64,000 bases of DNA from an uncultured virus (IMG/VR IMGVR_UViG_2821954623_000003). Taxonomy: Duplodnaviria > Heunggongvirae > Uroviricota > Caudoviricetes. Shown here one piece after another: positions 1-53,480 of the stretch. The notes beneath the pieces were generated by a model, which did no database searches, had not been told where the DNA came from, and was given only the letters and a program-made list of their open reading frames with translations. Every line of letters begins with the position of its first letter. Position 1 is the first letter of the stretch. Position numbers and translations under genes: made by a program. The DNA is taken from IMG/VR virus record IMGVR_UViG_2821954623_000003; one strand, given 5' to 3'.

Positions 1-429
1 TTACTTAATTACTTTGTCCATAACTTCTTTATATTTGTTAAATTGGGCATCTTCCATATCACCATTCATTTGTATAAGGAAGTTACCTTTTGCGTAAGTA
101 TGAGAGAATAGCATTTGATTACCATTACCTAAATCGTCATAGTATTTCTTAGCTTTTTCAAGATCTTCTTTGTTTTTAAACTCAAATATTCTACCACCAC
201 TATCTTCACCTAATGCTGGAACAAGAATGCGCTTTGCTTCTTTTCTAGTATTTCCAAATTCTTTTTCTGGTAGGTCACTAGGATTGTCAGCTTCTAATCC
301 TGCAGCTTTAAATTCTTCAATTACCTTACCAACCGTGACATTACTTGTCATTGATTTAACGCTGTCACAAGCGGATAAACCAAATAATAATAGAGCTCCA
401 ATAAGTAATACTGCTAATCTTTTAAACAT
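1..429 (-). CDS. Lipoprotein of unknown function
   Basis: Signal peptide with lipobox LSAC; GGAGG RBS upstream. Confidence 0.8.
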   Translation of the reverse strand: MFKRLAVLLIGALLLFGLSACDSVKSMTSNVTVGKVIEEFKAAGLEADNPSDLPEKEFGNTRKEAKRILVPALGEDSGGRIFEFKNKEDLEKAKKYYDDLGNGNQMLFSHTYAKGNFLIQMNGDMEDAQFNKYKEVMDKVIK

Positions 430-494
430 AGTTGTTCATTCCTCCTAATGTAAATAAATCCGTAAATATAATAACAAATTATTTATCTTTATAT

Positions 495-511
495 TGTCAT
501 ATATTGTCGAA
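495..511 (+). promoter_or_regulatory. Tandem Spo0A-box-like site (TGTCATA + TGTCGAA), copy 1
   Basis: Perfect 0A box TGTCGAA at 505-511 with a degenerate copy 10 bp away; same module at 7570 and 11010. Confidence 0.6.
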
Positions 512-629
512 CGGAAATAAAAAAGAGAGCTGGAGCCTTCAAGAAGGTATGGAAACAATTATGAGCTTCAAGGGCTATCTTGGAATTCAATATCACAATT
601 CATTTTTGGGAAGTGTATTTGAGAACCTT

Positions 630-1190
630 TTATTTTTGGATTATAAGAGTGCTATCACATTTACGACAAGCAATCTTCTCTTCCTCAAAAATGAATAAAT
701 TCTCAGCATCACATTCTGGGCATACAACCGCAAATGGTGTTTTTATATTTTTATAACATAGGAAAGAAAGGGCTGCCAGGATTAGAGCTGGTATAACAAG
801 CATCATAATTAAGAATAGGCCCGCAAAAACGCCTCCAATTATGGAAAGTGGTTTCATTAGTTTTCTACCCACGGAGTTTACTTGATTATCCTTCTTACGA
901 AAAGCAGTAACAATGTAAGTTTTGGTTTCTCTTACCTGCTCAAATGCTCTTACCGTATTGTAATCTTGTTCATTCATAGTGGGATAGGAAGTGTTTTGCC
1001 CTTGAAACCCTCGTTGTATATAATAGTTGTTGGACTCTGCTATTCGTGGTGTATACGAGATTCCAGTTCCAGGTATATAAGTTGTTGTTCTTGATTCAGG
1101 TGGAATGGAGTTCCCTCCCGTACCTGTGTATGTAAAGTTAATTTTCACACCCGGGGAAACTTGGATAATTCTACGAAACTTATAAGCCAT
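630..1190 (-). CDS. DUF4236-like membrane protein with C-terminal Zn ribbon
   Basis: N-terminal YKFRRIIQVSPGVKINFT, hydrophobic hairpin, CPEC...CRKC; start moved to ATG 1190 after a GAGG RBS. Confidence 0.6.
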   Translation of the reverse strand: MAYKFRRIIQVSPGVKINFTYTGTGGNSIPPESRTTTYIPGTGISYTPRIAESNNYYIQRGFQGQNTSYPTMNEQDYNTVRAFEQVRETKTYIVTAFRKKDNQVNSVGRKLMKPLSIIGGVFAGLFLIMMLVIPALILAALSFLCYKNIKTPFAVVCPECDAENLFIFEEEKIACRKCDSTLIIQK

Positions 1191-1530
1191 AATATTGTAT
1201 CCTCGCAATCTAATTAATATAATTATTTACTAATTATAACAATTTTTTAGTCTAACATTAATATATTAAGTTAAAACAAATTAATAAAAAAGAGTAATAT
1301 TGAAGTTTACTAATTTAAGGCGTTTAAGGAGTCCTTTTTTATAAAGAAAAGACACCCTAAGATGCCTTCCTCCGACCTGAATCATTTTAACCTTAAATAA
1401 TATCATTTTTCAAATTATAATAACATCTTATAATTTTATAGAAATATATAGAAATTTATACGAAAATATGACATTATATAACATGAATTTCTATTTTATT
1501 TAATATTTTTCCAAAGGAGGAAGATTTGTC

Positions 1531-3492
1531 TTGAAGAAATTGTTTTCATTTTTAGTATTTGTATTTGTAATTTTTTCAGCGAACAACATTTCATTTGCTG
1601 ATGAAGTTATACCATTTAACAAATCGTTTTTTGCATATAACGAGCCATCGTTTACATCTGCAAAGGGAAATGGTGGAGCTCAATATGGACCTCAAAAAGC
1701 TCTAACTGTAAAAGAGAAGCGTTCAGATGGTTGGTGGAAGATAGGAACTTGGGAAGGCGATAAGTGGATTAATACCGATGGGGAAAAAAAGAAAATAGAG
1801 AAACCCTATATTACTTTTGCTGAACCTAAATTCACATCACCAAAAGGGAACAATGGTAATGTTATAGCACCTCAAGTAGTTACGGCGATAGATGGGCAAG
1901 AAGATGGATGGTTAAAGATTCAAACCAATGAAGGAGATAAATGGATTTTCCTTAATTCTGAAGCGGTAAAAGTGGATAAAAATTTCTATGCGTATAATGA
2001 ACCTTCATTTACATCTGAAAAAGCAAGTGGCGGAAACCAATATGGGCCACAAAAATCACTTGTTGTAAAAGAAAAACGTACAAATGGTTGGTGGAAAGTA
2101 GCAACTTATGAGGGTGATAAGTGGGTTAACCTAGATGGGGAGTTAAAAGCATTTGATAAACCATTTTTAGTGTTTTATGAGCCTGCATTTGCATCTCAAA
2201 AAGGAAATATGGAAGTACCTTATAGTCCTACTACTATTAGAGTGGTTGATGGAAATACAAAAGGATGGTTTAAAGTTCAAACTTGGGAAGGCGACAAATG
2301 GATGTATCCAGGTGTTGCAGAGACAGTAGTACTTGATAAAAGCTTCTATAGCTATAATGAACCGTCCCTTATAGCAATTAAAGGAGCAGGTGGAAATCAA
2401 TTTGGTCCTCAAAAATTCTTACCAATATTAGAAAAACGTCCTGATGGTTGGTGGAAAGTAGTTACATACGAAGGTCCTACGTGGATTGCTCCTGATGGAA
2501 TCAAAATGCCAGTGAATGCTAATTTCACTACTTTTGATGAGCCTTATTTAGAAGCTAAGAAAAGTTCTGAGTTTGGTCCTCAAAAAAATTTAGTTGCTTA
2601 TGATGGAAAAAAGACAGAGCAGGGAGATTTTTATCTAGTCGGTACGTATTTGGGACAGAAATGGATGTCTCTTAATGCTGAAAAAGAGTTCAATGAAAAA
2701 AGGGAACCACTACGTCAGGCATTAGGTTACAACGAAAATGATATTGGACCAGATAAAACACCTCAGCAAAGAGTTGCAGAAGCAAGAGCTGCCTTAAAAG
2801 CACAAGGGCTTGATGATACATACGAAGCTGTAAGAATACCTACAGAAGAAGAAAAAGCTGAGTTTTTAAGAAAAGAAGCAGAAAAACAAAAGAATCCAAA
2901 ACAAGGCGTAGCACGTGCTGGAACAGTAACTTCATCTTGGAACATACCAGATGATTGGGTGCAAAAAGGTGACATTGTTATTACACCAGACTCTAACTAT
3001 GGTGTTACAGGACATTCTGGTATTATTGGTAAAGACTTCACTGAAACACAAGGGTTCTCTGGTGCTAATAAAGGAGAATATCTATTAGTACATGCACCAG
3101 GAACATCAGCATCGCCTGCAATCAAAATAATGCCTTTATCAAAATGGGAGTTTATCCATAAGGGAAATCAGGAATACTCTAACTTTGTATATTTAAGGTA
3201 TAAAAAGGATAAGGGAGCTGCATTTAGAGCTGCTGATTACGCCTATAATCATTTTTATCAGAATGGGTCTAAATATCGATATGATATTTTCGGAACTTCT
3301 GCAAAGAGTAACGATTATAAAACATATTGTTCTAAATTAGTTTACTTATCTTTCAGAGATGGAGCAGGAGTAGATTTCTTCCCAGTAAGTAATTTTTATA
3401 TTATACATCCGTATGATTTCTTACGCCCAATGCCAGGGGTAATTGGATTACGGATTCACTCCTTTGGTAAAGGTGGAATGTGGTGGGGTTAA
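1531..3492 (+). CDS. Secreted protein with about 6 SH3-like repeats and a C-terminal permuted papain-like (NlpC/P60, YycO/YiiX-type) domain
   Basis: Signal peptide; ~58-aa repeats of type WWKxxTxEGDKW; GHSGI precedes YCSKLVY (His before Cys = permuted order). Confidence 0.75.
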   Translation: MKKLFSFLVFVFVIFSANNISFADEVIPFNKSFFAYNEPSFTSAKGNGGAQYGPQKALTVKEKRSDGWWKIGTWEGDKWINTDGEKKKIEKPYITFAEPKFTSPKGNNGNVIAPQVVTAIDGQEDGWLKIQTNEGDKWIFLNSEAVKVDKNFYAYNEPSFTSEKASGGNQYGPQKSLVVKEKRTNGWWKVATYEGDKWVNLDGELKAFDKPFLVFYEPAFASQKGNMEVPYSPTTIRVVDGNTKGWFKVQTWEGDKWMYPGVAETVVLDKSFYSYNEPSLIAIKGAGGNQFGPQKFLPILEKRPDGWWKVVTYEGPTWIAPDGIKMPVNANFTTFDEPYLEAKKSSEFGPQKNLVAYDGKKTEQGDFYLVGTYLGQKWMSLNAEKEFNEKREPLRQALGYNENDIGPDKTPQQRVAEARAALKAQGLDDTYEAVRIPTEEEKAEFLRKEAEKQKNPKQGVARAGTVTSSWNIPDDWVQKGDIVITPDSNYGVTGHSGIIGKDFTETQGFSGANKGEYLLVHAPGTSASPAIKIMPLSKWEFIHKGNQEYSNFVYLRYKKDKGAAFRAADYAYNHFYQNGSKYRYDIFGTSAKSNDYKTYCSKLVYLSFRDGAGVDFFPVSNFYIIHPYDFLRPMPGVIGLRIHSFGKGGMWWG

Positions 3493-3509
3493 AATATAAC
3501 TCTATCATA

Positions 3510-3551
3510 TAAAATATAAAAGTGCCCTANNTAGGGCACTTTTATATTTTA
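3510..3551. terminator. Perfect 20-bp-arm palindrome, probable bidirectional terminator
   Basis: TAAAATATAAAAGTGCCCTA-NN-TAGGGCACTTTTATATTTTA between convergent genes. Confidence 0.75.
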
Positions 3552-3597
3552 AAAAAGCCATCCTAAGATGTCTTCCTCCGACTGGATTAAATATTAA

Positions 3598-3945
3598 TCA
3601 TTTTAGTTCGTCGTGTTTTCCTTGTTCCTCATGATCTTGCCCAAATTCAATTTTGCCAGTATGAGGATTATCCCAACGTACGTATTTGTACCATATGTTT
3701 GGTTCATCTTTAAATATAACATGTGCTCCATATTGAGTTTGTTTACTATCAAAAAAAGGTTTAATTTCTAAAACATCTGACTTTGCATACCCTTGTTCTT
3801 CTAAGTGCCACATAATCCCTATAATGGCTGCTTCTCTTAATTTTGGATCACCTGTAATAAAATAACGATCTATTATCCCTTTTCCAATTATAAATAAGCT
3901 AATTATAAGTAATAAAGATGTAATTATAAGAGCACCTTTTTGCAT
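3598..3945 (-). CDS. Small membrane-anchored protein (DUF3139-like)
   Basis: N-terminal TM helix, V.FKDEP...Y.Y motif, AAGGAGG RBS. Confidence 0.6.
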   Translation of the reverse strand: MQKGALIITSLLLIISLFIIGKGIIDRYFITGDPKLREAAIIGIMWHLEEQGYAKSDVLEIKPFFDSKQTQYGAHVIFKDEPNIWYKYVRWDNPHTGKIEFGQDHEEQGKHDELK

Positions 3946-4300
3946 GTATAAATATCCTCCTTATTTTAATTTATCCTTTATATAAGAATAAGGGAATTGC
4001 ACGTTAAAATATAGATTTAGGAATAAAGAAAAAAAGACACCCTAAGGTGCCTTCCTCCGACTTGAACCACTTTAATTTTAATAATATGTATTGGACTCCC
4101 ATCCAAATATTATTTTACCATGTTAAGTTGTTTTGTTCATTGAGAAAAAGGTAAGATACACGAGATGTTTTTCCTTCTTCTGGATCAACTACATCTGGTT
4201 CCGCTGCTGCCAATATATTTTCTCCTCTGCAACTGTATATTTCTATCATACTATATAATTGTCAGTGAGTTTCCATATTATCATTCTGATTTATGGATAT

Positions 4301-4522
4301 TTATATTTTTAAATACATAGCTGAAAAAGAATTCACGACACAATACAAATAAATCCCTATAGCAAAAAATGCTAGTAAAAGTCTTAATAATTGGTCCTTA
4401 CAATATATACTTACTAGTATTCCAAAAGGAATTAGTAAAATTAGCGGTGCACACAACAATAAAACGCCTTTATATAAGCTGTCAGTTGTAATTTGATTAA
4501 TAAGTTCTATATAGAGTGACAT
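4301..4522 (-). CDS. Small two-TM membrane protein
   Basis: Hydrophobic ORF with AAAGGG RBS. Confidence 0.55.
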   Translation of the reverse strand: MSLYIELINQITTDSLYKGVLLLCAPLILLIPFGILVSIYCKDQLLRLLLAFFAIGIYLYCVVNSFSAMYLKI

Positions 4523-4816
4523 ATGATGTCCCTTTCTAAAATTAATCTATTTATTGTTATAATACATTATATATTCCATAAAGAAAAGACACCCTAAGGT
4601 GCCTTCCCGGGACTTGAACCATCTTAATTTTGAAAAATGGCATTGAAGGAATTTCTTTATTTATAACTATATTAGGGATGTTAATAATGGTATTTTATAG
4701 TGATATGAAAAAATTAATTATTAATGAATTTAAAATAAAGAGAAGACCGAACTAGAATAACAATCTAGTTCGGTCTTCTTTTTATTTGTTTACTTGGAAA
4801 ACTTAATTAAAGTTTC

Positions 4817-5110
4817 TTAATTATTACTTGTTCGCCATCCTTCATAATGTCCTGTCCATGAATTTTTACTTACTTCAGTTGCTCCTTTTAAATACCAAGT
4901 CACTCCATCCCACTCTTTTACAGTAGGTATTTCCCCTTTTGATTTGTAACCAGGGAAGTCTTGTTTTTCTTTTTTCTTAACAAAACTTTTTTTATTATCA
5001 ATCGTTTTTAATTTTACACCTGTATCAGTAGGTGTTTCCGCAAATACTCCTCCAGCACCAGATAACATAATTCCAGTTGCTAATGTTCCAATTATTACTT
5101 TCTTGAACAT
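4817..5110 (-). CDS. Secreted peptide, probable LCI-fold antimicrobial precursor
   Basis: Signal peptide ending VFA; C-terminal DGVTWYLK..SWTGHYEGW resembles B. subtilis LCI; own terminator at 4741-4779. Confidence 0.55.
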   Translation of the reverse strand: MFKKVIIGTLATGIMLSGAGGVFAETPTDTGVKLKTIDNKKSFVKKKEKQDFPGYKSKGEIPTVKEWDGVTWYLKGATEVSKNSWTGHYEGWRTSNN

Positions 5111-5455
5111 GAAAAATCCCCCTTTTTTGGAATGAATATTACATAAATAATGATATCATATTATTTGTATTTTCTAACATTTTAATTTATTTATAAATAT
5201 TTTATTGAATATTCAAACTATATGATTTAATATGAAAAGATTTACAAATAATTAGTACTATTAGTAGTGAATCTCAAGTAAATGACTGGAAGAAAATTAA
5301 ATCATTTATGGGGTAAGAAGTATAGAATCCAAGCTTTTTCAATTTAAATTTATATTCAAAAGTTTATTTTCAGATTAGAAAAGGTTAGCTCCTCGATCCC
5401 CTTTTTGAAAATAAAGAAAAGACACCCATATAAGAGTGCCTTTTCCGATAGTTTT

Positions 5456-5566
5456 TTAGCAGAAGCAAGCAGCTCCAACGATGATTAATAAAATAAATAA
5501 TACAACTAATAAAGCAAATCCTCCTGCAAAGCCACAGCCGCCACCGCAGCTACCACCAAAGCCCAT
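5456..5566 (-). CDS. YjcZ/SscA-family small sporulation protein (36 aa, not in the ORF track)
   Basis: MGFGGSCGGGCGFAGGFALLVVLFILLIIVGAACFC; AAGGAGG RBS; FALLVVLFILLIIVG is the family signature. Confidence 0.85.
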   Translation of the reverse strand: MGFGGSCGGGCGFAGGFALLVVLFILLIIVGAACFC

Positions 5567-5821
5567 AATAATTCCTCCTTTAAATAGTAGGAGAAAAATA
5601 AGGAGTCACTCATGTATTTTAATGGATTCAAATTACTTTATGTTTTTATGGATTAAATGAGCAGGTCCTTTTGAAAATAAAGAAAAGACACCCTAAGGTG
5701 CCTTCCTGCGACTTGAACCACTTTAATTTTAATAATATGTATTGGATCCCCATCCAAATATTATTTTAAGTAATGTTGGTTATTGAAAAATATGGTTCAA
5801 ATCTATATTTTATTAAGTATA

Positions 5822-6418
5822 CTATTTGTTATTTTTCACTTCTTCTTTAACTTTTATAATTTTCCCTTTAATTTCGTCAGAGATAATGACATCAATATTG
5901 CCTTTTGTTTTTTTGTATTCTTGAAGTAATTCATTCGCATTTTGATTAAACGTTATTAATGTCCCGCTCGGTGATTCCATTTGTTCTTTTAAAGCTGTAA
6001 TGGTACTGTACATTTTTTTATATTCTTCATAAAGTTCCTTATACTTTTCTGGTTGTTCTTTTGCAGCTTCAGATAACTCTCTTAGGCTCATTTCCATGCC
6101 GATATAGGTTGAGGACACAGTATCAATTGTTTTATCAAATGATTTTTTCTTTTCAGCGATAGCTAGATTGAAATCCTTACGATTATTAATTGCGTTTGAC
6201 CAGGTTGTTGAGTATCCAGATAATACATCCTCGGAGATCATACCCATTGTTTCCGTTGCGATATAAAATGCAGCAGCAGATGCAATATTATTCGCTTCTT
6301 TCTTTTTTTGCTTTTCGGTTTCTTCCGAATTTTTTTGTACCATGTTCATAGATACAAGTGCGATTATTATAACTATAAAACCAATGACACTGCCAATAAT
6401 TTTTTTATTCATATACAT
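5822..6418 (-). CDS. Membrane-anchored helical protein
   Basis: N-terminal TM followed by a coiled-coil-like body; GGAGG RBS. Confidence 0.7.
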   Translation of the reverse strand: MYMNKKIIGSVIGFIVIIIALVSMNMVQKNSEETEKQKKKEANNIASAAAFYIATETMGMISEDVLSGYSTTWSNAINNRKDFNLAIAEKKKSFDKTIDTVSSTYIGMEMSLRELSEAAKEQPEKYKELYEEYKKMYSTITALKEQMESPSGTLITFNQNANELLQEYKKTKGNIDVIISDEIKGKIIKVKEEVKNNK

Positions 6419-6494
6419 TCCTCCAATCGATTGTTCTCGGATGTTAGATTTTATTTATCGAATCAAAATAAAAGCACTCTTTCGAGTGCCTATT

Positions 6495-6839
6495 TTATGC
6501 AGATACAGTAGCTTTATCTTTACGGAAGATACCCATTAATCCGCCGATTAATAATAATACTCCTGGTAATAAGTAAATCAGAGAAATACAAATAAATCCT
6601 CCGATAGCAGCAACAGTCATCATGATACCGCCAACTTTCGCTTTACTTCTTACCATAACAGATCCAACGATTCCTAATACAGATAGAGCTACAGCGCCCC
6701 AACCTAATCCGATAATCGTATTTGCACCATCAGCTTCGAAAGCTGCTCCCATACCACCGATTAATAGTGCAACAAATGCACAAATAATACCAAAAATACC
6801 ACCAATAAGTCCTAATACAAATTCAGCTGTTCGTTTCAT
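6495..6839 (-). CDS. Four-TM membrane protein (DUF4064-like)
   Basis: MKRTAEFVLGLIGGIFGI start, Gly-rich TM helices. Confidence 0.7.
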   Translation of the reverse strand: MKRTAEFVLGLIGGIFGIICAFVALLIGGMGAAFEADGANTIIGLGWGAVALSVLGIVGSVMVRSKAKVGGIMMTVAAIGGFICISLIYLLPGVLLLIGGLMGIFRKDKATVSA

Positions 6840-6857
6840 GTTTAACTCCCTATATAA

Positions 6858-7499
6858 TTATTTAGATTTAAAGAATACTTTATTCTGTTTCTGAGTTTCA
6901 AATTGAATCGTAAAGTCATCACCAGCATTTACAACTTGTGAAATATAACCTTCGCCTTCAGCGCCTTTGTATAATTTTTGATGTAACTGGTTAGGTGTTA
7001 CAGCGGATAGTTCATGATTATATACTTGTCCTTCTTTTGATACTAATTTAAAGTTCATATCAGACAGTAAATATTCAAAATCTTGTGTTTCAGCATCTAC
7101 TACTTTCCCTTTTACTTTAACTAATACCCATTCTTTTCCCTCAGGAGCAGGTTCGTTGAATTCATTTTCTTTTTTTAGAATTCCAAAAGCTTGTTCACCA
7201 CGTATAACTTCTAAAATGGAAACTTCAACTTTCGCTTTGAATTTCTTAAATTCTCCACCATCAGTATTTAAAATAACATCGTCTATAGAAGCAGTTTCAT
7301 TAAATGCTATAGGATTAGAACGGTTACCCTTAGCAGATTCTGTTTTTCCTTCTTTTGAATTATCTTTTTTTGTTTCTTGTTTTGGTTGCTCTTTTTCTTT
7401 TGTTTCTACTCCATTACTAGTCTTCTCGTTAGATCCGCATGCAGCTAAACTAAAAGCAAGTGCTCCTGTTAAAGCGATTGTACCCAATTTCTTATACAT
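6858..7499 (-). CDS. Lipoprotein (DUF4352-like Ig fold)
   Basis: Lipobox LAAC, charged linker, beta-rich C-terminus. Confidence 0.7.
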   Translation of the reverse strand: MYKKLGTIALTGALAFSLAACGSNEKTSNGVETKEKEQPKQETKKDNSKEGKTESAKGNRSNPIAFNETASIDDVILNTDGGEFKKFKAKVEVSILEVIRGEQAFGILKKENEFNEPAPEGKEWVLVKVKGKVVDAETQDFEYLLSDMNFKLVSKEGQVYNHELSAVTPNQLHQKLYKGAEGEGYISQVVNAGDDFTIQFETQKQNKVFFKSK

Positions 7500-7569
7500 T
7501 ATGTTTCCTCCAGTTATGTAAAATGTAAGATTTCCGAAACTATCATAACAGAAACGGTTACAACTATTT

Positions 7570-7586
7570 TGTCATATTTTGTCGAA
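7570..7586 (+). promoter_or_regulatory. Tandem Spo0A-box-like site, copy 2
   Basis: TGTCATA 7570-7576 and TGTCGAA 7580-7586. Confidence 0.6.
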
Positions 7587-8056
7587 CGAAAATAAAAAAA
7601 GAGAGCCGTAGTATCCAATGGGAAAATGATAAGAATTTACCAATGGAAATGAGAGAGGTTGTCCCCTTGCTAATTAAAAACTTCCCCTATGTTGTACAAA
7701 TATTGAATAATACTTTTTATCAGATTTATAGGGGAGATACGGTTTTACTGTGGGAAGGAGTATGTATCAAAAGGTGTACCTTTTGATGTATATATATTCT
7801 TATAGGGTTGGAAAACAGTTCTTTATAAATTTGCGATTTTTTTTTGGTTATTTCAAGATTAAAAATGAGAAAAAATCCTTGATAGATGCCATAATAACTA
7901 TTAGTAAACCAACGCTGTGTGGGGGCTCGCCCACACACGACGAGCCAGTACATACACCCAAAAACAGGGGGAAAGCCATAAATGCAAATCTAAAAAACCT
8001 GTTCAAAATATCGAACAAGTTTTTTAGATACATTCACTTTAGGAAAAAACTTTAAA

Positions 8057-8446
8057 TTACTGGTAATGATGTGTATTACACATATTTTTACAGACATAGA
8101 AATTACCTCCTGATGTTAGCATGCAATGGGTAAAACAATCAGGATAAGATGACATTTGGGTTATAGGAGAAGTTACCCAAAGTTCCTTCATGCACGTCTC
8201 CATACAAGCCCCTATATCTGGTTTATTCTGACACTGTTGAGCACAGAAAGATGTTCCTGGTGGATGGTTATGATAGGACATGATTGCAGGAGAATTTGAG
8301 GACATTTCTACCGGTCCTGGTTCTGGTATTGGTATTGGAGGTCCTGGCTGAGTTGCACAAGGTATTGAGATACATATTGGTTGTTCATAATAGCAATTTC
8401 CATAAGGATCACAGCGACGTATTAAAAAACATTGTAAACATTGCAT
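8057..8446 (-). CDS. Cys/Pro-rich small protein (possibly spore-associated)
   Basis: AAGGAG RBS; twin CX3C...CX3C units; no signal peptide. Confidence 0.65.
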   Translation of the reverse strand: MQCLQCFLIRRCDPYGNCYYEQPICISIPCATQPGPPIPIPEPGPVEMSSNSPAIMSYHNHPPGTSFCAQQCQNKPDIGACMETCMKELWVTSPITQMSSYPDCFTHCMLTSGGNFYVCKNMCNTHHYQ

Positions 8447-8979
8447 AGTGTTTTCTCTCCTTTTAATTCATATATTAATCTAAATGTAAATTAAGGTTTT
8501 ATAAGATATTTTAAGAGTTTTACATAGTCATTCAAATTATAGATTATGAGTAATTTATCTAATATGATTGGGTATTTTTAAGTTTTTACTTGTCTAAGGG
8601 AAACCACTAAGCGGTTATATGGCGAAAGTTTCTTTACCATGAGGGGGGTTCCCCTCATGGTAAAGAAAACGTGAAATAAATAGCGTCCATCGGGGCAACG
8701 CGAAGGGAAGACCGATGTCTTCCCTTCCTACATAAAAAAGGTCCTCCAGATTGTTTAGCTGGGGACTTTTGTGTTTACATAATTATCGTTATTGGAAGTA
8801 AAGTAAACCCCTCTTAATGGGGTACGAACACTGTTCTTGTTATAATTAGTCTTTTTCAGAACGTCTATAATCCTCTTTTAAAAAATATATGTAAATATAA
8901 TAAAAAACGAATGATTAATAGAAATATTCTACGCCACTCGTTTTTTATCGGACTTCTTTTTACTGTACTTTTATTTTCT

Positions 8980-9282
8980 TTATGAGTTATTAGAAAAATA
9001 ATTGTCTATATAAGTCTTTATTTTTTCAAAATCCTTTTCCATAAATAAGATTGCTGGTACTTCAATTATTGGAAGATTATTTTCATTATCAAAAGGTGGA
9101 CACGGTTTGGGAACTACCAAATAGTCAACTGAGTTTTTATCCCTAATATAATTAATTGAAACATCATAATACTTAGAAAAATATTCCTTCAAATCATCCT
9201 GATTCCTTAAAAATGGTAGAGAAAATATTGAACCATAATTTATACCAGCGTCGACAATTAATACAAAGCATATTTTTTTCAT
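8980..9282 (-). CDS. Hypothetical alpha/beta protein
   Basis: GAGGAGG RBS, 100 aa. Confidence 0.6.
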   Translation of the reverse strand: MKKICFVLIVDAGINYGSIFSLPFLRNQDDLKEYFSKYYDVSINYIRDKNSVDYLVVPKPCPPFDNENNLPIIEVPAILFMEKDFEKIKTYIDNYFSNNS

Positions 9283-9437
9283 GATACACCCTCCTCGTAT
9301 AATAAGTTTTAAGTTAATAACTGTTCCTTGAAAATTAAATAGTTTTTATCTTCAAGAGCTACATCAAAAAAATGATGTATGGGTAAAATTTAGTCTTGGA
9401 TACTGGGGGATTTCCCTACCTTATTCAAAGAAAGGCA

Positions 9438-9635
9438 TTACATGCTATTCCGAATGTAATAAAACAAATAAAATACTAAGACAACAACAGTAATAATACT
9501 CGATGCTGTTCTGAAAGTTTTGTTTTCATACGTTTTATTTAACAAGAAGAAGAACAAAACGACCCAGACCCCGTTGGAAAAGAATGATGTTAGTGCATTG
9601 AAAATAACTCGAAACACAAACATAGAGTCTTCCAT
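9438..9635 (-). CDS. Small two-TM membrane protein
   Basis: Hydrophobic ORF, GGGTG RBS-like sequence. Confidence 0.45.
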   Translation of the reverse strand: MEDSMFVFRVIFNALTSFFSNGVWVVLFFFLLNKTYENKTFRTASSIITVVVLVFYLFYYIRNSM

Positions 9636-10091
9636 TAGCTTTTCACCCTAGTCATTTTCCTTATTATACCATTATTAAAAAGTGATGTGCGGTGTTTTTT
9701 TGATTGTATATTCTATACATGCTTGGTTAACATAACGTCTTATTATTGGTAGCAAGGACAAGGAGGAATCCCTACTTTCACAAGGGAACCTCCTTTTATT
9801 GTTCTATGGATCTATTTATTTTTTTATACATTCCTATCCTAGCACGGTTTTAGAGTTCTCGTTTGTTACTGGGTTCGTCGAAAAACTGTATAAAATCTTG
9901 CATACTCTTAGCTTGTTTTTTCTATGGAATGCTGCCGATACCTTTTTAATGCATAAAGAAAAGACACCCTAAGGTGTCTTCCTGCGACTTGAGCCATCGT
10001 AATATGGTATCGGATGCCAATCCAAATATTATTTTACCATGTTAAATTGTTTTATATATTGAGAAATATGAATCAGGTCTATATTTTTAAA

Positions 10092-10919
10092 TTACTTGAT
10101 TACGCCACCAGAAACTCCGGACATTGCCATAATATCAATTATTTTATCTGATATAGTGGCTTCTTTTCCGCCTCCGTAGTAGGCATTTAATGCATCAATA
10201 AACCAATATGCGTCGGCTGTTACAGAACTACCACCAGATTTCATTGACTCAATAACTGTTTGAACATATATAAATTTATCATCAAATGATAATTTAGCCC
10301 AATCTCTACCAGTCGCATTCTTAATTTTTTCTACTTCTTCATTAGTTGATGAAGAAGTGCCAGTTGAAGGTGGTGTAGTACTGGTTTCAGTTTTGACAGG
10401 TTTAACAGGTATTCCATCTTTAGCGCTTGCATCGTAAATGATATTACTTTCAGTATAACTTTTATCTTTATCATCTAAGTGCAGCTGATCTCCAATTGAG
10501 TAAGAATAATATGTGTAATATTCGTGTTTCTCTGTTTGTAATACAACACTAAACACTTCGCATGCAACGCCTTGTCCACAATATAAATTTCCCGCACCAT
10601 CTTTGCCTTGCGGTTTTCCGCCTTGTTTTTCAATGATTTTACCTATGGATACCAAGTATTTATATTGTTCCTTAGGTTGTAAGTTATCAAATGAATCGTT
10701 AAGGGAAGCTACGATGTCATAAGAATAATATGGATTTTCAGCATTTGGATCTGTATTTTCTAATTCTTTATACATTACGGATTTTAGATGATTTTTAATT
10801 TCTTTATCCTTTGATATTTCGGAGACGATACTATCCAAATTTTTAGTAGTATGTTCTGGTCCGCCACAACCTGATAAAACTAACATTGCAGTGATAATAG
10901 TTAAAATGATTCTTTTCAT
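10092..10919 (-). CDS. Lipoprotein, two domains joined by a Thr/Ser linker
   Basis: Lipobox LSGC; GAGG RBS before ATG 10919. Confidence 0.8.
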   Translation of the reverse strand: MKRIILTIITAMLVLSGCGGPEHTTKNLDSIVSEISKDKEIKNHLKSVMYKELENTDPNAENPYYSYDIVASLNDSFDNLQPKEQYKYLVSIGKIIEKQGGKPQGKDGAGNLYCGQGVACEVFSVVLQTEKHEYYTYYSYSIGDQLHLDDKDKSYTESNIIYDASAKDGIPVKPVKTETSTTPPSTGTSSSTNEEVEKIKNATGRDWAKLSFDDKFIYVQTVIESMKSGGSSVTADAYWFIDALNAYYGGGKEATISDKIIDIMAMSGVSGGVIK

Positions 10920-11009
10920 AGTTGTCCTCAATTCTTATTGTTTTAATGGATGCCATTTGCAATATGTAAAATTTCTCATCTCATAGTAGCAAACGATTCA
11001 TTTCTATAT

Positions 11010-11026
11010 TGTCATATTGTGTCGAA
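11010..11026 (+). promoter_or_regulatory. Tandem Spo0A-box-like site, copy 3
   Basis: TGTCATA 11010-11016 and TGTCGAA 11020-11026. Confidence 0.6.
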
Positions 11027-11117
11027 TGAAAATAAAAAAAGACACCCTAAGGTGCCTTCCGCCGACTTGAACCACTTTAATTTTAATAATATGTATTGGA
11101 CTCCCATCCATATTTTC

Positions 11118-11741
11118 TTATTTTATGTTGTGCTTATCCTTTTGTACTTTACTCATAAATTGTGCAACGAATTTTAATTCATTAGGGTTAAGATTTTCTA
11201 ATTGTTCTTGTTGCTCATTTGTTTTTAAACGCACTTTTATAATTCTATTAAATGCTTCTTGCCCTATTTCATCGAGTGATGAGTAAAGTTTAGGTAAGTA
11301 TTTTAATTGCTTAGGTGTAAGCTTGCCATCTTTTTTTATAGATTGATCGGTAATACCTTGGTGAAACTTATTAGGATATTTAGATAAATAATCATCTAAT
11401 GATTTGTATAGGATATTTTTCCAATAGTCGTTTTTATCTTCTGTTAGTCGTTTTTTATTTACAAGATTTCCATGTATATCATAAAATTCTGTTTTGAAGT
11501 CATCTGTGAATTTCCCTATACAATCTGAACCTACAACCATTGTATTGTTGTTTAGTTGATTTTTAATTGTGTATTCATAACGGATTTCTTCATGATCACA
11601 TAGTTCGCATTTTGCATTGCAATCCTCATTGTCTTCTAACCCTATATACACCCATTCTTTGCGTGCTTTTTGGAAATCCTTTTTTTCCTCACTCATTTCT
11701 AATAAATTTTTTCTCGCTCGTTTTTTCCAATCGTTCTCCAT
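11118..11741 (-). CDS. Zn-binding cytoplasmic protein
   Basis: CELCDH...VGSDC motif; start moved to MENDW. Confidence 0.65.
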   Translation of the reverse strand: MENDWKKRARKNLLEMSEEKKDFQKARKEWVYIGLEDNEDCNAKCELCDHEEIRYEYTIKNQLNNNTMVVGSDCIGKFTDDFKTEFYDIHGNLVNKKRLTEDKNDYWKNILYKSLDDYLSKYPNKFHQGITDQSIKKDGKLTPKQLKYLPKLYSSLDEIGQEAFNRIIKVRLKTNEQQEQLENLNPNELKFVAQFMSKVQKDKHNIK

Positions 11742-12446
11742 TATTTTTCTCTCATTCCTTTCTATTAAATTAATATGATATTTTTCCGTGGATTTGTATT
11801 TCAAAGAGACAAATAAAAAAGACCACCCGTAAGCTCGTAAAAGCATGGGTGGTCTCCTAAAATCAGAAAATAGTATTTAGTTGTGACCACTCACCTTGCG
11901 GTAGCAGTTGTTCAAAGAGACGTTCCAATATCTCTTCTTTTATAATATGTACGTACAAAAAATATCAAAATATCAAAATATCATTAAATAAATTATAGCA
12001 AAGGTTTTAAAAAAAGAAAAGACACCCAAAGGTGCCTTTTACAGACTTGAACTATCTTAATTATAATAATATTTATTGTATCACGCTGGTTTATAGCGAT
12101 TATTGAAAGATACAATTCAAATCTATAATTTTTGTAATTTACTTCAGTTGCTGTCTTTCTTTGTTCGGCTTCCATTTGATGTTCATTTGCTATATGCCCA
12201 GTTGCAAAGCTAATCTTGATTAATGAATACAATGCAACTCCATTAATTATTAAAGATAGATTAGGTCATACAATAACATTAAGCACTTATTCACATTTAT
12301 ACTCAAATGTGAATTTTGAAATTGCTAATAATATGACTGAATCAATTAAATACACAACCGTTAAAAAAGAAAACAAAACTTAAAGGTAATTAAAAGAATC
12401 TGTGAATATTTAATTTCTGAAAATATATGCAGGATCTTTTGAAGTT

Positions 12447-14276
12447 TTATCCAATACTCACGGGTTCTTTTGAAAATCCATGTAATGCATTAGGCAATAT
12501 TAAATCGTTAGAGATTCCTGCCAATGCACGTAGCTTATTAAACATTGTAGCAAAATCTTTAATAAATTCTTTTACGTGCTTTTCATTAACCGGATCTTTT
12601 AACCAATATTTATATACTTCTATTAAGAAAAATTTAAATTCTTTAAATAACTCTTTATATTTTTCTCTCCTAATACCACTAATAGACCTGCCTGCATCCT
12701 CAAGTTCTTTAATATGTTTTTCAATTTTATCTCGCTCTTTTATTACATATTCTATTACGAAGTTTTTTTGATATGCATTTTGTATAATCATAGGCTGCAT
12801 CCAAAAATCATTATATTCTTCACATTGTAAAAGTAAATCTAAATAATTAAACAATAGCGCCTCAGGATTTTTACTACCTGGAAGAGTTATAATTTTTTTT
12901 GGCCAATCATTGTTCATATCACCATCTAAAATACAAAAAGCATTTACTAAGTTATTTACTAAATATGTATCACTAAACATATTTTTCAAATTATTCGAAC
13001 CTATATTCATATCTACAAAATGCAAATAAGAACTAGCACGCTCAAATAAATTATTATCTCTGTCCAAGAATTTTATATAATCTAAAGTAACTTGTATTAA
13101 AAGTCGAGCTTCCTCATCTTCAGTAAATACTGCAATTTTTTTTGAATAATCATCTTGATTTCGCTTTTGTTTTAAATAGTTTCGAATAAGAGAAATATCT
13201 AAATTTCTCCCATTAGGATTCTTTAGTTTCTCTACATTGTGAAGTAAATCTATTAAATATACTACGTTTTGTTTATAGTCTAAAGCAACTTCTAATAAGT
13301 CAATACTGTGTGTTGTGCCAATAACTTGCATCTTATATTTTTTTGAGTACTCTAAAAGTAAAGTATACAACTTTGCTTGATAAAAAGGATGTAAAGTAGC
13401 ATCGAGTTCATCAATTAATAATATACTTTCTACTTCCTTTTCACTTTTATCCAAGGTTTCATAATAATATCTTAACGATACTAAAGCTGTAATAATAATA
13501 TACAGGTTATCTTCTCCTGCCGAAATAGTATTAGAATCTACACCTTCTTTTTCAGTAGTAAATTCGGCTCTAATTTTTTGCTTAACTATTGAGGTGAATT
13601 TTTCGGAGTTATTAATCTTTACATTGGTGAAATCTTCATAAATCTCATTTATACAATTTATATGATTATCAGGAAGCTTTTTACTTAAAGATTTCAACAA
13701 CGGTGTTGAATTATTTCGAATGATTAAATCATTCAATGCTTCTCTATGTTCTTCTTTTAGGCTAGACATTATTTCCTCTGGTATCGATAATTCTGAAAGG
13801 TCTTCTATTTCACCATAAGTGAGAAGGCGACTAAGTCCTAAATAAATTACAGGCATTTCGGGTAAGTGCTCACCTTTTCCTTTTGGATAATAAGGCTTAA
13901 GAGAATATCTAAAATTAGGATTTCCTTTTCCAGAAATATGCTTTCTGAAATTTATATTGTAATGATCATAATAAGTTACATTTAAAATATCCCCAGTTAT
14001 ATCTTTAGCGGGGTCATTATTTGTCTTATCTCCCTTAGTTAAATTCTCTACTTTAGGATTAAATTTATTATTAAGCTGTTGAATTATTTGTATGCATCTT
14101 TTCAGATCAGTACTTTTAGTAGATTGAACTACTTTTTGATAACTGTTACTTACTAAATAAAGCAGTGAGGATTTACAAGTCCCATTCCCTCCAGATATTA
14201 AATTTACATTTGGCGAGAATTCAATATCAAAGTTCGATAACTTTCTATATTTAACAATATCCATCTTTTTAACCAT
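12447..14276 (-). CDS. OLD-like ABC-ATPase with C-terminal TOPRIM-like domain
   Basis: Walker A GGNGTCKS, signature ISAGE, Walker B LLIDELD, H-loop TTHS, TOPRIM-like FTED and ILDGD. Confidence 0.75.
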   Translation of the reverse strand: MVKKMDIVKYRKLSNFDIEFSPNVNLISGGNGTCKSSLLYLVSNSYQKVVQSTKSTDLKRCIQIIQQLNNKFNPKVENLTKGDKTNNDPAKDITGDILNVTYYDHYNINFRKHISGKGNPNFRYSLKPYYPKGKGEHLPEMPVIYLGLSRLLTYGEIEDLSELSIPEEIMSSLKEEHREALNDLIIRNNSTPLLKSLSKKLPDNHINCINEIYEDFTNVKINNSEKFTSIVKQKIRAEFTTEKEGVDSNTISAGEDNLYIIITALVSLRYYYETLDKSEKEVESILLIDELDATLHPFYQAKLYTLLLEYSKKYKMQVIGTTHSIDLLEVALDYKQNVVYLIDLLHNVEKLKNPNGRNLDISLIRNYLKQKRNQDDYSKKIAVFTEDEEARLLIQVTLDYIKFLDRDNNLFERASSYLHFVDMNIGSNNLKNMFSDTYLVNNLVNAFCILDGDMNNDWPKKIITLPGSKNPEALLFNYLDLLLQCEEYNDFWMQPMIIQNAYQKNFVIEYVIKERDKIEKHIKELEDAGRSISGIRREKYKELFKEFKFFLIEVYKYWLKDPVNEKHVKEFIKDFATMFNKLRALAGISNDLILPNALHGFSKEPVSIG

Positions 14277-14416
14277 ACTGTATACTCCATTCTTTCCTTA
14301 TTAACATTTCTATACAATTTTACACTATTTAATTAGCTGGCCAATCATAAATTTATATGATAATATGAATAAAATATTAAAAATCGTAAAATTTATTTAT
14401 AAAGTGGTGATATATT

Positions 14417-15442
14417 ATGAACGAAAAGGATTTTAAGAAAATAATCCAATCTAAGTTAAATATTCAATTAGAGAACTACATTTTAAATTTCTCTTCTCCT
14501 CAAAATCCTTTGAATATAGAAAAAATTTCCAGAGAGGTAATTAAACAAAGTCACATAAACCCTAACACAGCAATTGAAAAGATATTCTATGAAAAACTTT
14601 CAACTGAAGAATATAAAGCTTACAAAAGTCATTATAATATAAAAAACAAGCTATCCCCTTTAAGATACCCCGGTGCTAAAAGTAAGGTGTTAAATAGATA
14701 CACTAAATATTTTAAAACCCAACATAGTGAATATAGAGAACCTTTTGTGGGAGGAGCTTCAATTTTTTTAGGTAAACACCCAGTTGACATTAATGTCTTA
14801 AATGATAAAGATTATAATGTCTATGCTTTTTTATACGCTGTTAAAAATTATCCAGATTTACTATGCCAAAGGGTAAAAGAAACAAAACCGACCATTAATT
14901 TATGGTTGGAAAAAAAAGCAGCTAACTTAAATGATAAAGGTATATTAGAAACTGCATTCGATTTCTTCTTTTTTAACAGGACTAATTATTCTGGAATTTA
15001 TAGTGCTAACCCTTTAGGGGGATTAACGCAAAAATCTAAATATAAGATAGACTGTCGATGGAATAATGAGAGATTATGCAAGCAAATTACAGAAATGAGT
15101 AATAAGCTGAAAAATGTAGAATTATTAAATACTGACTTCGAAGAAATAATTTCAAGGGAAGGTAAAGACGTTCTACTAATTATTGATCCCCCTTACTATC
15201 ATAAAGGTAATAGCTTATATTCTACAAAAATGTCTCATAACGATCATTTGAGATTGGCTGAACTACTCAAAAACACTCAACATAAATACGTGCTTACTAT
15301 TGATGAATGTCCTGAAACAAGAGAAATTTATATGAATGAAAATACATATATTAATCAAGAAACTTGGAAATACACCGTTCACTCTAAGAAATCTGATAAC
15401 AATGGTAAAGAACTTTTTATTTCAAACTTCCCAGTAAATTAA
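14417..15442 (+). CDS. Dam-type (D12 class) N6-adenine DNA methyltransferase
   Basis: SPLRYPGAK, YREPFVGGAS and DPPY motifs. Confidence 0.9.
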   Translation: MNEKDFKKIIQSKLNIQLENYILNFSSPQNPLNIEKISREVIKQSHINPNTAIEKIFYEKLSTEEYKAYKSHYNIKNKLSPLRYPGAKSKVLNRYTKYFKTQHSEYREPFVGGASIFLGKHPVDINVLNDKDYNVYAFLYAVKNYPDLLCQRVKETKPTINLWLEKKAANLNDKGILETAFDFFFFNRTNYSGIYSANPLGGLTQKSKYKIDCRWNNERLCKQITEMSNKLKNVELLNTDFEEIISREGKDVLLIIDPPYYHKGNSLYSTKMSHNDHLRLAELLKNTQHKYVLTIDECPETREIYMNENTYINQETWKYTVHSKKSDNNGKELFISNFPVN

Positions 15443-15476
15443 GTATTATTTGTATCATTAAAGGTATCAATATAAA

Positions 15477-15519
15477 TAAAAGCTTGACGAGCCTACTATT
15501 ATAGGCCCGTCAAGCTTTT
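15477..15519. terminator. Bidirectional terminator
   Basis: AAAAGCTTGACG...CGTCAAGCTTTT between convergent genes. Confidence 0.7.
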
Positions 15520-15589
15520 ACTTTAGTGATGCAACAAATATTACAAATGAAATAGCTGATGTAATGAATAGCTTTCTAGTTTTTGTTTG

Positions 15590-16258
15590 TTACAATTGGT
15601 TTTTGGCATCTTTTAAGTAATCATTGAAAGGATCGTCACATCCTAATCTACGATAAAAATCTTCGGCTAAGTTATAAGCTGTTATAAGAGCCCATTTAGA
15701 ACTACCAAAACCTAAGCATTTGTTAGGAAAGTATGAAGGGACATTCGAGAATAATGGATTTGGATCGAATTTCCCACCATATTTTATTTCCAGTTCTTCT
15801 GTGTTTCCTTCATATTCAACCCACTCCGGTTTGTAATGAACTAAATTATTTCTTAACTCAACCAACAGCTTTGCATCTTGATAGGGATTAGTTTCTTCAT
15901 CGAATATATTTTGTCCTGATTTTTCTAGAACAGTCTTATATTTACGTAAGATAGAGTGACGTTCATTATTCTTAATAGGCTCCCACCAGCTAAGAACATT
16001 GTTTTTTTGCTCAGAAGTAAGGGCTAGTTTTGAATTATGTGTAAAATCTTTTATATGGTAATTAAGGCATTCATTAATTGTGGCTTCCATAAAATTAGCA
16101 GCAGATGTAATAGCCCCAATAGCATAGTTTCTGCTGTCTGTTCTTTTCTCATAACTTTCTTCCGTGTCTGAATTCTCAAGCTTTTTTCCTTGCAAAGCGA
16201 GGTCTACACCCAAAATAAAGTGTGCTTCTCCTAAAAAAGATATAATTTTATTTGTCAT
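15590..16258 (-). CDS. HEPN-like domain protein (putative RNase)
   Basis: RNNLVH (RX4H) motif plus upstream conserved E (FMEATINE), all-helical. Confidence 0.6.
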   Translation of the reverse strand: MTNKIISFLGEAHFILGVDLALQGKKLENSDTEESYEKRTDSRNYAIGAITSAANFMEATINECLNYHIKDFTHNSKLALTSEQKNNVLSWWEPIKNNERHSILRKYKTVLEKSGQNIFDEETNPYQDAKLLVELRNNLVHYKPEWVEYEGNTEELEIKYGGKFDPNPLFSNVPSYFPNKCLGFGSSKWALITAYNLAEDFYRRLGCDDPFNDYLKDAKNQL

Positions 16259-16937
16259 ATGTCTGTTTTCGCCCCTCTTGAATTAATTTATTCATTTTAT
16301 TTAATTATATCATTTTTCTGATTTTAATAGTGCGAATTTATAAATGTTTTATTTGGAAGAGCGTGTTTATATTTCCCCTGACGTAGCTTCTGGATTTGTA
16401 GAGGTAGTAAAAGTAGTACTTGAGAAATTCAAAGTAAATGCAATGGCTACCTATTCGAATTTGTATCAATATGTATGGGTGATATTGTATATTGTTAAGT
16501 AGTAAAAAAAGAGAGCTGTAGCTCTTCTGGTTAATACGATAAAATATGTATGTGGGCACCTCATACAGAAAGATGCACTATTGCATATCCTTATCCGGAA
16601 GCGCGAGAAACATTGATATAAAGCTATCTTCAAACTTTCTCAACATTTTTCTGATAACCACACGACTGAATTTTGGCAAAAATATGATATTATGAAAATA
16701 ATAAAATAAACGGAACGAAAAAAAGACTCACAGCGTGTGTAAGTAGTGTTCGCACCACTCTTACACCGTTCGCCCGACTCACCAGGGGAACATCTGCCAT
16801 AAGTCTCTTTTCGGTCACTTCATGAGTAACAATTACATTATAACATGCCGATATTACTAAAGCATTACTGTGGTATGAATTTCCTGTTTATAATTTGAGG
16901 AAAATAGCGAAGCGTCTTTGTTCCAAAAGGAGCAAAT

Positions 16938-27666: not shown

Positions 27667-27784
27667 TCCTATTAATTACTTAATTGTATTATACAGGAAA
27701 AATATTTGAGGTTAATCAATAGTGATACGATTTAAGGAAGATTTAAACAAAATTAATCTTTTTAATAGAAAGCGAGGAATAACA

Positions 27785-53186: not shown

Positions 53187-53480
53187 CTAAATACATGTAA
53201 ACAAGTAGGGCAGCCATGAGCTGTTTTTAATTTTGAATAAAATACGGTTTTTATAGGCACTCGAAGGGATGTTTTTCTTTTATCTATTTATTTTATATCT
53301 AATTTAGTAGATTCTTTATGGGAAATGGTAATTAAAGGAGAAAGATATAGTGATTTATAACAAGGAGCTGATAGGATTTCTTTGTTTGTTAAATACTTCA
53401 AAAATATTTAATTATAATATCAAGTAATAGTGATATAATTGTTGGTGTTATATATCCAATTTAATATCAGGAGGTATATT

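Follow-up and report, generated by a model that had tools for sequence, protein, structure and literature searches.

A 122-bp promoter and terminator module as a probable exchange point for accessory genes in Bacillus cereus-group phage-plasmids

Introduction

Promoter-early stem-loop (PeSL) cassettes of T4-type phages are repeated promoter and terminator modules in hyperplastic regions, as described in the accessible portions of the papers on them (PMC2839356, PMC4122927). Here, we analyze a comparable arrangement in a 64,000-nucleotide stretch of DNA from an uncultured Caudoviricetes virus (IMG/VR record IMGVR_UViG_2821954623_000003; henceforth the window, with positions counted from its first base), in which nine copies of one repeat separate accessory genes. 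With a probability of roughly 0.7, we propose that this repeat is a 122-bp module combining a promoter, a ~77-nt RNA and a terminator, and that accessory genes are swapped, excised and reordered by short-homology recombination within its terminator-side ~50 bp.

By analogy, PeSLs offer the closest working model for the repeat. Going by the same portions of the PeSL literature, both are composites of a sigma70/sigmaA-like promoter and a stem-loop terminator that recur in a variable region, mostly with one non-essential gene between copies; insertions, deletions and replacements occur at the modules, no dedicated integrase is involved and homologous recombination is proposed. A PeSL, however, stops upstream transcription, promotes the next open reading frame (ORF) and ends in a Shine-Dalgarno sequence and start codon, whereas the promoter of the repeat appears to drive a ~77-nt non-coding RNA with its terminator, and the cassette genes bring their own promoters. 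As the terminator lies ~77 nt past the transcription start (+1), the promoter appears not to serve the adjacent ORF, although read-through is possible. The repeat further differs from PeSLs in that its copies are eroded from one end and that it resides, within the B. cereus group, on temperate phage-plasmids, on megaplasmids and in chromosomal clusters. Excised mini-circles are a further mark of PeSL cassettes. The two are likened by layout and function alone, and a sequence relation is not expected.

Three other systems invite comparison. An earlier note on this DNA, made from its sequence without database searches, had called the array integron-like. The layout agrees: co-oriented repeats lie between mostly single, unrelated accessory genes, and cassettes are reordered between elements. 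Unlike in an integron, there is no tyrosine recombinase and no single crossover point, the repeats appear as terminators rather than as attC hairpins, which have R/L boxes and extrahelical bases, the cassettes carry promoters, and the variation relative to the closest relative lies in the middle of the array, both ends being kept; the array is not an integron. Linkers and morons of temperate phages, in the accessible part of PMC3945230, resemble the repeat in short-sequence exchange, in promoter-gene-terminator units and in the presence of a Sak-family protein. Unlike them, the repeat places one linker up to 16 times in tandem in one region, and therefore makes excision, reordering and array growth possible. 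Finally, bcr1-bcr18 are intergenic repeats of the B. cereus group, 100-400 bp in length and often transcribed, of which bcr18 is plasmid-borne (accessible parts of PMC6542083, PMC6199540, PMC3446304) and eleven others are chromosomal only (PMC6542083, likewise in part).

The window belongs to a 70.5-kb contig encoding an AimR arbitrium receptor (16938-18167), Sak, a DnaC-like ATPase, RecU, a serine resolvase, portal, capsid, tail, holin and amidase proteins, as well as UmuC/YolD and FtsK together with a replication-relaxation protein; a ParA-like ATPase was recognized by eye. In its structural region, the contig shows 94.7% identity over 77% with NZ_CP126518, an 87.6-kb circular plasmid of B. 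toyonensis. This gene content and match identify the host element as a phage-plasmid of the B. cereus group, in which the array is placed between the replication/partition region and that of AimR. Plasmids and phage-plasmids of this group trade surface, antimicrobial and defence genes by a route that has so far been unclear. A 122-bp landmark predicts where such cargo starts and ends in hundreds of replicons, so that arrays can readily be searched for new genes of defence and of the cell surface, and a Gram-positive temperate system becomes available in which to test the modular-linker theory of phage evolution. The principle itself is not new, and the PeSL precedent limits the surprise.

Results and Discussion

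Using a profile of the 122-bp repeat model built from 105 full-length copies, we found nine co-oriented copies with a common left edge, at the very places where the earlier note had put them. Eight score 25-126 bits; the copy at 5409 scores 9.7 bits (E 0.037) and appears in a relaxed search only. As a chance control, the profile gave 658 matches in 2.88 Mb of fetched loci and none in the reversed loci. The copies are:

1341-1402, minus strand: truncated copy, terminator core plus ~30 bp (match 1342-1402, model positions 2-61)
3547-3600, minus strand: degenerate copy abutting the stop codon of a DUF3139 gene (match 3551-3600, model 5-59)
4026-4147, minus strand: full module (match 4029-4147, model 4-122)
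4578-4648, minus strand: truncated copy (match 4579-4648, model 2-71)
5409-5450, minus strand: weak, degenerate, terminator-only copy directly after the stop codon of a YjcZ gene (match 5412-5448, model 2-35)
5677-5789, minus strand: near-full copy with an extended tail to ~5812 (match 5678-5789, model 2-121)
9953-10066, minus strand: full copy with intact promoter and an extended tail to ~10087 (match 9954-10066, model 2-122)
11031-11129, minus strand: copy reaching model position 99 and overlapping the stop codon of a 207-aa gene (match 11034-11129, model 4-99)
12011-12103, minus strand: near-full but degenerate copy that closes the array on the right (match 12013-12103, model 3-115)

The copy lengths first reported largely stand, with the corrections that the copy at 11030 measures ~97 bp and not 80, that at 3551 measures ~50 bp, and that at 12008 is degenerate but near-full. 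Similarly, the copies within the original bounds of 1341-12080 are all present, yet the array runs further both ways: the near-identical record L240 has an additional copy 126 bases to the left of what is window base 1, from which we conclude that the array is cut by the contig end, and another lies at contig position 68555. Seven of the eight inter-repeat intervals hold one gene each, and the eighth (5790-9952) holds six genes and no copy.

Conservation edges are sharp at both ends of the ~122 bp. Read along the minus strand, the module comprises a conserved upstream box, a variable spacer and an extended -10 element (TGnTAAAAT), followed by a small hairpin, an invariant AU-rich stretch and, last, an intrinsic terminator, with the box-to--10 spacing fixed at 19 bp across 120 sites. 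In the full module at 4026-4147, the upstream box occupies ~4140-4147 and the extended -10 element 4112-4120, the predicted +1 lies at ~4105, and a 5' hairpin with a GNRA loop is followed by the terminator, whose U-tract ends at ~4028. This promoter had been overlooked in the earlier note, which had correctly taken the shared left edge for the end of a minus-strand terminator: on one strand, RNA of the repeat takes a terminator fold that includes G-U pairs, and the minus-strand fold is the better one in 9/9 window copies. The 5677-5789 copy has lost the TG of its extended -10 element to an 8-bp deletion; an internal 8-bp deletion in the 9953-10066 copy leaves the promoter unaffected. Beyond the right edge of the module, an extended tail is seen in 18/407 copies (window 5783-5812 and 10059-10087), with a plus-strand promoter-like site that faces the upstream gene in antisense direction and a stretch matching module positions ~34-45 in inverted form.

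Promoter activity could be assessed on the anthrax plasmid pXO1, which carries a 78%-identical copy at 439-541. Its +1 was predicted from sequence at record positions 456-462 ahead of consulting start-site data. Cappable-seq places a start at 459-460, on the strand of the prediction, in the wild type (false discovery rate 8e-9) and in an atxA mutant (PMC8407390 Data Set S1), which is the predicted +1 of the module, with a chance probability of ~0.7% for a 6-nt window on pXO1. Because the mapped start coincides with the prediction, we conclude that the promoter fires in this one diverged copy. The coordinates of the copy differ from those of XrrA-D. Aligned to this start, the full module of the window yields one further feature:

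4028-4105, minus strand: predicted ~77-nt non-coding RNA, the start being mapped in the pXO1 copy only

A length of ~77 nt is predicted in 79/114 families. The loop of the 5' hairpin is GNRA in 73/114 families and UGGC in 30, and the terminator stem is 99% paired. An Rfam search gave no match in the window, and only weak, chance-level matches for 3900-6000. The mapped start suggests a small RNA family that is abundant, present in multiple copies and not represented in Rfam. In full-copy families, the upstream gene often has a terminator of its own within 70 nt (33/124 versus 3/124 in the control), which suggests that full copies are separate transcription units; shorter copies (9/80 and 4/90 versus 6 and 10 in controls) would instead form the 3' end of the gene. 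In B. cereus ATCC 10987, whose plasmid holds one partial copy, the transcript table gives the gene upstream of it no end. Among full copies, the gene that follows is co-oriented in only 88/152 and often has its own promoter block. The RNA would most likely act by base pairing or by protein binding, as a small RNA.

Other interpretations of the repeat were discarded by eye. A coding sequence was ruled out by a start codon that is not conserved and by indels of 2 and 5 nt, and the tRNA-like look of the GGTTCAAGTC stretch by the missing T-stem. Contigs from four RNA runs cover the repeat with varied flanks; neither ends nor strand could be read from them and two, with very long records, suggest DNA, and they were not used. 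Further promoter/~80-nt/terminator units share the upstream box of the repeat at much the same distance from the -10 element (G000:C1 68390-68555 and loci L175, L155, L164 and L055, the last four again with a box-to--10 spacing of 19 bp), one of them head-to-tail with a repeat copy; by their common layout, they possibly form a family of related small-RNA modules.

Exchange of genes at the repeat was assessed by comparing gene content between repeats in relatives. NZ_CP126518 carries 14 copies. It shares window positions 1-1379 (98%), a block that ends inside the 1341-1402 copy, and positions 10957-16768 (99%), the end of which falls within a promoter block, ~75 bp to the left of a repeat; between the two blocks lie different genes. 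Over 407 copies with enough flank, unrelated partners occur in 42/51 left-flank and 47/59 right-flank families. Among 246 repeat-to-repeat segments (median 869 bp), 129 fall into 38 whole-length families, 30 of which have at least two different neighbours, and 13 family pairs occur in both orders. The proposal of the earlier note that cassettes are gained and lost at the repeat is borne out by these swaps and reversals and, as far as sequence comparison can tell, extends to their reordering.

To what extent the repeat marks the junctions was gauged from 104 shared blocks, which end at 42 distinct sites. With five in genes and three beyond 12450 dropped, 34 non-coding breakpoints are left, and half of these (17) lie within repeats, although repeats occupy just 18% of that non-coding DNA; this ~2.8-fold enrichment has p 2.5e-5, an optimistic value since the loci were picked because they contain the repeat and since BLAST blocks run on into repeats that are shared. 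The repeat thus serves as a cassette junction for half of the sites, with the other half lying elsewhere. Because half of the breakpoints lie at other reused modules, the strongest rival account is that the repeat is a passive patch, a reused terminator or small-RNA gene in 3' untranslated regions, where general short-homology or illegitimate recombination acts as in any shared intergenic DNA. Consistent with it, other breakpoints coincide with a reused promoter block or with a second family of terminators, and a 4.2-kb block of six genes lacks any copy. Moreover, 22/70 relatives of the YjcZ block have no scored repeat on either side, and 26/282 upstream families have an at least 90%-identical relative that lacks a scored repeat; inspected by eye, some seven of the 26 are degenerate copies, and several others join at short A/T-rich matches or at another terminator. 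The enrichment of breakpoints in repeats speaks against mere passivity, as do the recurrence of whole cassettes from repeat to repeat in new orders, the switch of allele linkage inside the repeat described below, and the rise of copy number (1-13) with record size (Spearman 0.85, 30 hand-picked phage records). Weighing these, we regard the passive account as unlikely.

Allele patterns localize the exchange within the repeat. Positions 1-6 follow the left flank (mismatch 0.09-0.28 versus 0.20-0.54 in unrelated pairs), and positions 35-60 follow the right flank (0.046-0.11 versus 0.10-0.24). Triplets were formed for 28 copies, each set beside one partner that shares its left flank and one that shares its right flank; a single crossover fits 18 of them without conflict. 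Three of these clean triplets have crossover intervals ending by position 18 and six have intervals starting at 29 or later; when two supporting bases are required, two triplets map to 25 or less and four to 29-33 or more. The crossovers lie within the first ~55 bp of the repeat. As the intervals do not overlap, there is no single fixed site, and the fixed-site mechanism considered in the earlier note is not supported. The mosaics instead point to homology-driven exchange within the conserved core.

The genes for recombination functions on the contig are:

20636-21262, plus strand: Sak single-strand annealing protein (PF06378, E 1e-51)
27722-28414, plus strand: RecU Holliday-junction resolvase (family search)
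31601-32185, plus strand: small serine resolvase, 19 kb from the array

Profile searches for a tyrosine recombinase (PF00589) gave none in this contig, whose record is cut at both ends, none in five other arrays and one partial match among 12 records with at least five copies; a search of the contig for a reverse transcriptase was also negative. The earlier statement that no integrase or reverse transcriptase lies nearby is thus upheld for these two enzymes, with the addition that the contig does encode Sak, RecU and a serine resolvase. This resolvase raises the alternative that the repeat is the target of a small serine resolvase or another site-specific enzyme, an integron-like system with its enzyme encoded far off. 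The resolvase is present in the contig and in 5/5 other arrays and, by another count, in 9/12 records with at least five copies versus 2/13 single-copy records (Fisher p 0.005); a good number of crossovers are located close to the terminator hairpin, and, by eye, an inverted repeat joins positions ~34-45 to the extended tail. Small serine resolvases have a role in dimer resolution, which would also explain the association, and lineage and size act as confounders in this hand-picked set of records. The resolvase is missing from three arrays of 5-9 copies, a repeat profile search of the contig gave no repeat near the resolvase gene, and the crossover intervals are disjoint (25 or less versus 29-33 or more, with two variable bases in two and four triplets). 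Site-specific exchange at the repeat therefore appears quite improbable.

The ends of the repeat behave asymmetrically. The terminator end is kept in 455/459 distinct copies (324 loci), and the other ends are spread over positions 25-122. As a control for bias from searching with a terminator word, loci were fetched by a right-end word: the core was present at 60 of the 62 sites, in 57 by pattern and in three by eye, and the remaining two are non-Bacillus chance matches. The polar pattern of common and ragged ends seen in the earlier note is hence general. Repeat length tracks the upstream (right-hand) cassette, with a median difference of 1 bp for the same right flank (184 swapped pairs) and 32 bp for the same left flank (294 swapped pairs; the pairs in these comparisons are not independent). 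Because length follows the upstream cassette, the ragged ends may be read as inherited junctions from a one-time capture of each cassette.

Such polarity had prompted the suggestion of an RNA-linked acquisition, i.e., reverse transcription from the U-tract with 5' truncation, followed by self-insertion or gene capture. Strict polarity and the transcription of the module in at least one copy would fit such RNA-borne spread. However, 152/381 and 199/455 copies, about 40%, include promoter DNA upstream of +1, which is foreign to a cDNA; repeat length follows the upstream cassette; the contig has no reverse transcriptase; and a search for empty sites over 407 copies returned one weak candidate (76%/87% identity), which was not accepted. 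RNA-borne spread is very unlikely and, for routine movement, largely refuted.

Several observations weigh against our preferred reading of short-homology exchange at a promoter, small-RNA and terminator module. In the segment comparison, 70/246 segments have partial relatives only and 47 have none; 17/34 non-coding breakpoints lie outside the repeat, e.g., in the reused promoter block and the second terminator family; and the compared pairs are not phylogenetically independent. A single crossover does not fit 10/28 triplets, and several calls depend on one variable base, at position 18. Exact shared runs are short (median 18 bp in random pairs, 39% reaching 23 bp and 19% reaching 31 bp), the serine resolvase is enriched in array-bearing records (9/12 versus 2/13), and one 13-copy array has no Sak. 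As for the RNA, no compensatory base-pair change was found in 70 sequences, and the pXO1 start has been assigned to a 139-nt leader of the next gene (PMC8407390), a stretch within which the intrinsic terminator lies.

For homology-driven exchange, the available parts of PMC3945230 put the minimal length in E. coli at 23-27 bp with Red-beta and at 31-34 bp with RecA; short, diverged matches are reported there to be preferred by Rad52-like recombinases of phages. Among window copy pairs, exact runs reach 23 bp in 10/36 and 31 bp in 3/36. Because shared runs are short and Rad52-like recombinases favour such matches, Sak, which is present in 4/5 other array-bearing records, would by analogy be the likelier catalyst.

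These results can be assembled into a tentative course of events. Small phages carry one full copy at the junction of the replication/partition and repressor/AimR regions, and larger ones are multi-copy. From this starting state, a new gene would join the upstream side once, in an illegitimate join often at A/T-rich microhomology. That join would remove a variable part of the promoter end, and the junction would then be inherited with the gene, producing ragged ends. The unit of terminator core, gene and promoter would subsequently spread by crossovers anywhere in the shared core, as the mosaics suggest, likely catalyzed by phage Sak and/or host RecA. The terminator end would always be kept because it is the sole homology common to all cassettes and also the stop signal that insulates them.

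A more far-reaching scenario, possible though doubtful, is that of a cassette pool in which a small-RNA gene has been co-opted as a docking site throughout the B. cereus group, on phage-plasmids, megaplasmids such as pXO1 and chromosomal islands. Cassette circles would excise and re-enter through Sak with RecU or through the serine resolvase, and the ~77-nt RNA would be a dosage-amplified regulator of host or phage. If true, such a pool would be an integron equivalent without IntI or attC.

Distribution of the repeat

Host range was gauged by exact-word scans and BLAST. The repeat occurs at 1552 places in 546 plasmid records, 544 of them Bacillus, and in 15 phage records with one match each; the exact-word scans returned 115, 38 and 45 viral stretches and 91 and 31 genome stretches. 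One copy, 94% identical, lies in CP079755.1, labelled as a Klebsiella grimontii plasmid and probably a mislabelled or contaminating Bacillus plasmid. All eight whole genomes searched hold 8-20 clustered matches, fragments included; in the only complete chromosome among them, clusters lie near 549-556, 969-994 and 1181 kb. PfNC7401, phage 250 and Waukesha92 carry one full copy between the replication/partition and repressor/AimR regions, and larger phages up to 13-16 copies. A 9-copy array on a 290-kb conjugative plasmid (NZ_CP043832, 175-191 kb; L208) adjoins FtsK and replication-relaxation genes resembling those of the phage-plasmid, which suggests a phage-derived island. On pXO1, the copy stands just downstream of a reading frame in the same layout as in the array, a cassette relic; by eye, the end of this frame (record ~330-420, L324 2620-2710) matches the C-terminus of the window 1-429 lipoprotein.

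The repeat could also be one of bcr1-18 or a transposable element of the miniature inverted-repeat kind (MITE), unconnected with cassettes. It is likewise restricted to the B. cereus group, falls into the 100-400-bp class and occurs on chromosomes and pXO1. Copy counts argue otherwise, insofar as the accessible bcr data extend. HD521 has nine copies of at least 61 nt on one plasmid versus 0-2 for each plasmid-capable bcr except bcr1 (PMC6542083 Table S2). On pXO1, one match compares with three bcr18 copies, and on pBc10987 one partial match with four. A B. mycoides genome has 11 matches versus 101-130 bcr1 copies in four other strains of the species, and the 8-20 clustered matches per genome contrast with tens to more than 100 dispersed chromosomal bcr1 copies. 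Counts in HD521, pXO1 and the ATCC 10987 plasmid thus fit none of bcr18, bcr4, bcr6, bcr10, bcr13 and bcr16, and a chromosome-wide bcr-type element, raised in the earlier note as a possible refutation, probably does not account for the repeat. Unlike bcr elements, the copies are clustered, co-oriented and tied to accessory-gene arrays, a distinction drawn from copy counts and distribution. Identity with a known repeat is accordingly extremely unlikely. We found no earlier description of it in the open literature, the scope of the search, with subscription papers including that on bcr1-18 outside it; the accessible part of PMC11526630 does not mention it.

Cassette genes and neighbouring features

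The cassettes of the window are listed below, with the number of whole-length relatives that have scored repeats on both sides. The short YjcZ-linked copy lies below the score threshold, which lowers the figures 3/8 and 4/70.

1-1187, minus strand: lipoprotein-like gene (1-429) and DUF4236-type gene (630-1187), found repeat-to-repeat in L240, L206 and L208
1531-3492, plus strand: 653-aa protein with N-terminal repeats and a C-terminal permuted papain-like domain (YiiX/LnsA/Peptidase_C92, score 0.94); 1/1
3598-3945, minus strand: DUF3139 gene; 3/5
4301-4522, minus strand: 73-aa hydrophobic protein, no family match; 2/2
4817-5110, minus strand: LCI-fold secreted peptide with its own terminator at 4737-4783; 3/8, the other 5/8 having a repeat on the left side only
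5456-5566, minus strand: YjcZ family, 36 aa (family search); 4/70
5790-9952, strand not assigned: repeat-free six-gene block (198 aa, DUF4064, DUF4352-like lipoprotein, Cys/Pro-rich 129 aa, 100 aa, 65 aa); 0/0
10092-10919, minus strand: 275-aa lipoprotein, family matches in the signal region only; 4/7
11118-11741, minus strand: 207-aa protein with a CxxC-like motif by eye, 99% identical and repeat-flanked in NZ_CP126518; 1/1
10983-11030, minus strand, also ~468-524 and ~7543-7599: second reused module, a promoter block ahead of three lipoprotein genes and also a breakpoint site

The 653-aa protein gave a weak LnsA match (E 0.0014), no Pfam match and an empty PDB search. Breakpoints of the six-gene block fall at other reused promoters and terminators. 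Within it, the 129-aa Cys/Pro-rich ORF (8057-8446, minus strand) has no match in Pfam, PADLOC, NCBIfam or PHROGs, and the 100-aa ORF (8980-9282, minus strand), without a family match, presumably resembles a PTS IIB-type domain. The lipoprotein promoter block adjoins the repeat in 22/407 copies and contains TGTCGAA, which we take to resemble a Spo0A box. A second YjcZ cassette (G000:C1 69050-69640) is cut where a repeat would begin and is followed by an apparent resolvase fragment.

At the right end of the array stands a divergent pair, an AAA ATPase (12447-14276, minus strand) and a Dam-like methylase (14417-15442, plus strand), which is 99% identical in NZ_CP126518 and is a candidate defence system. 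The best PADLOC matches of the ATPase are PtuA, HEC-04, GajA and AriA, all partial, and that of the methylase is PD-Lambda-5_B (E 7e-65). The AAA ATPases of the window and of pBTHD521-3 bear only a remote likeness.

Two N bases at 3530-3531 are part of the loop of a perfect hairpin and two more lie in a palindrome near contig position 64350; both are probably assembly artefacts. Elsewhere on the contig are a PQQ-type beta-propeller gene (53439-54854) between the tail and holin genes, the UmuC/YolD pair (56908-58511), an SLH-domain protein (61999-62679) and, at 45950-46467, 66-bp periodic repeats inside a probable tape-measure gene of 1032 aa.

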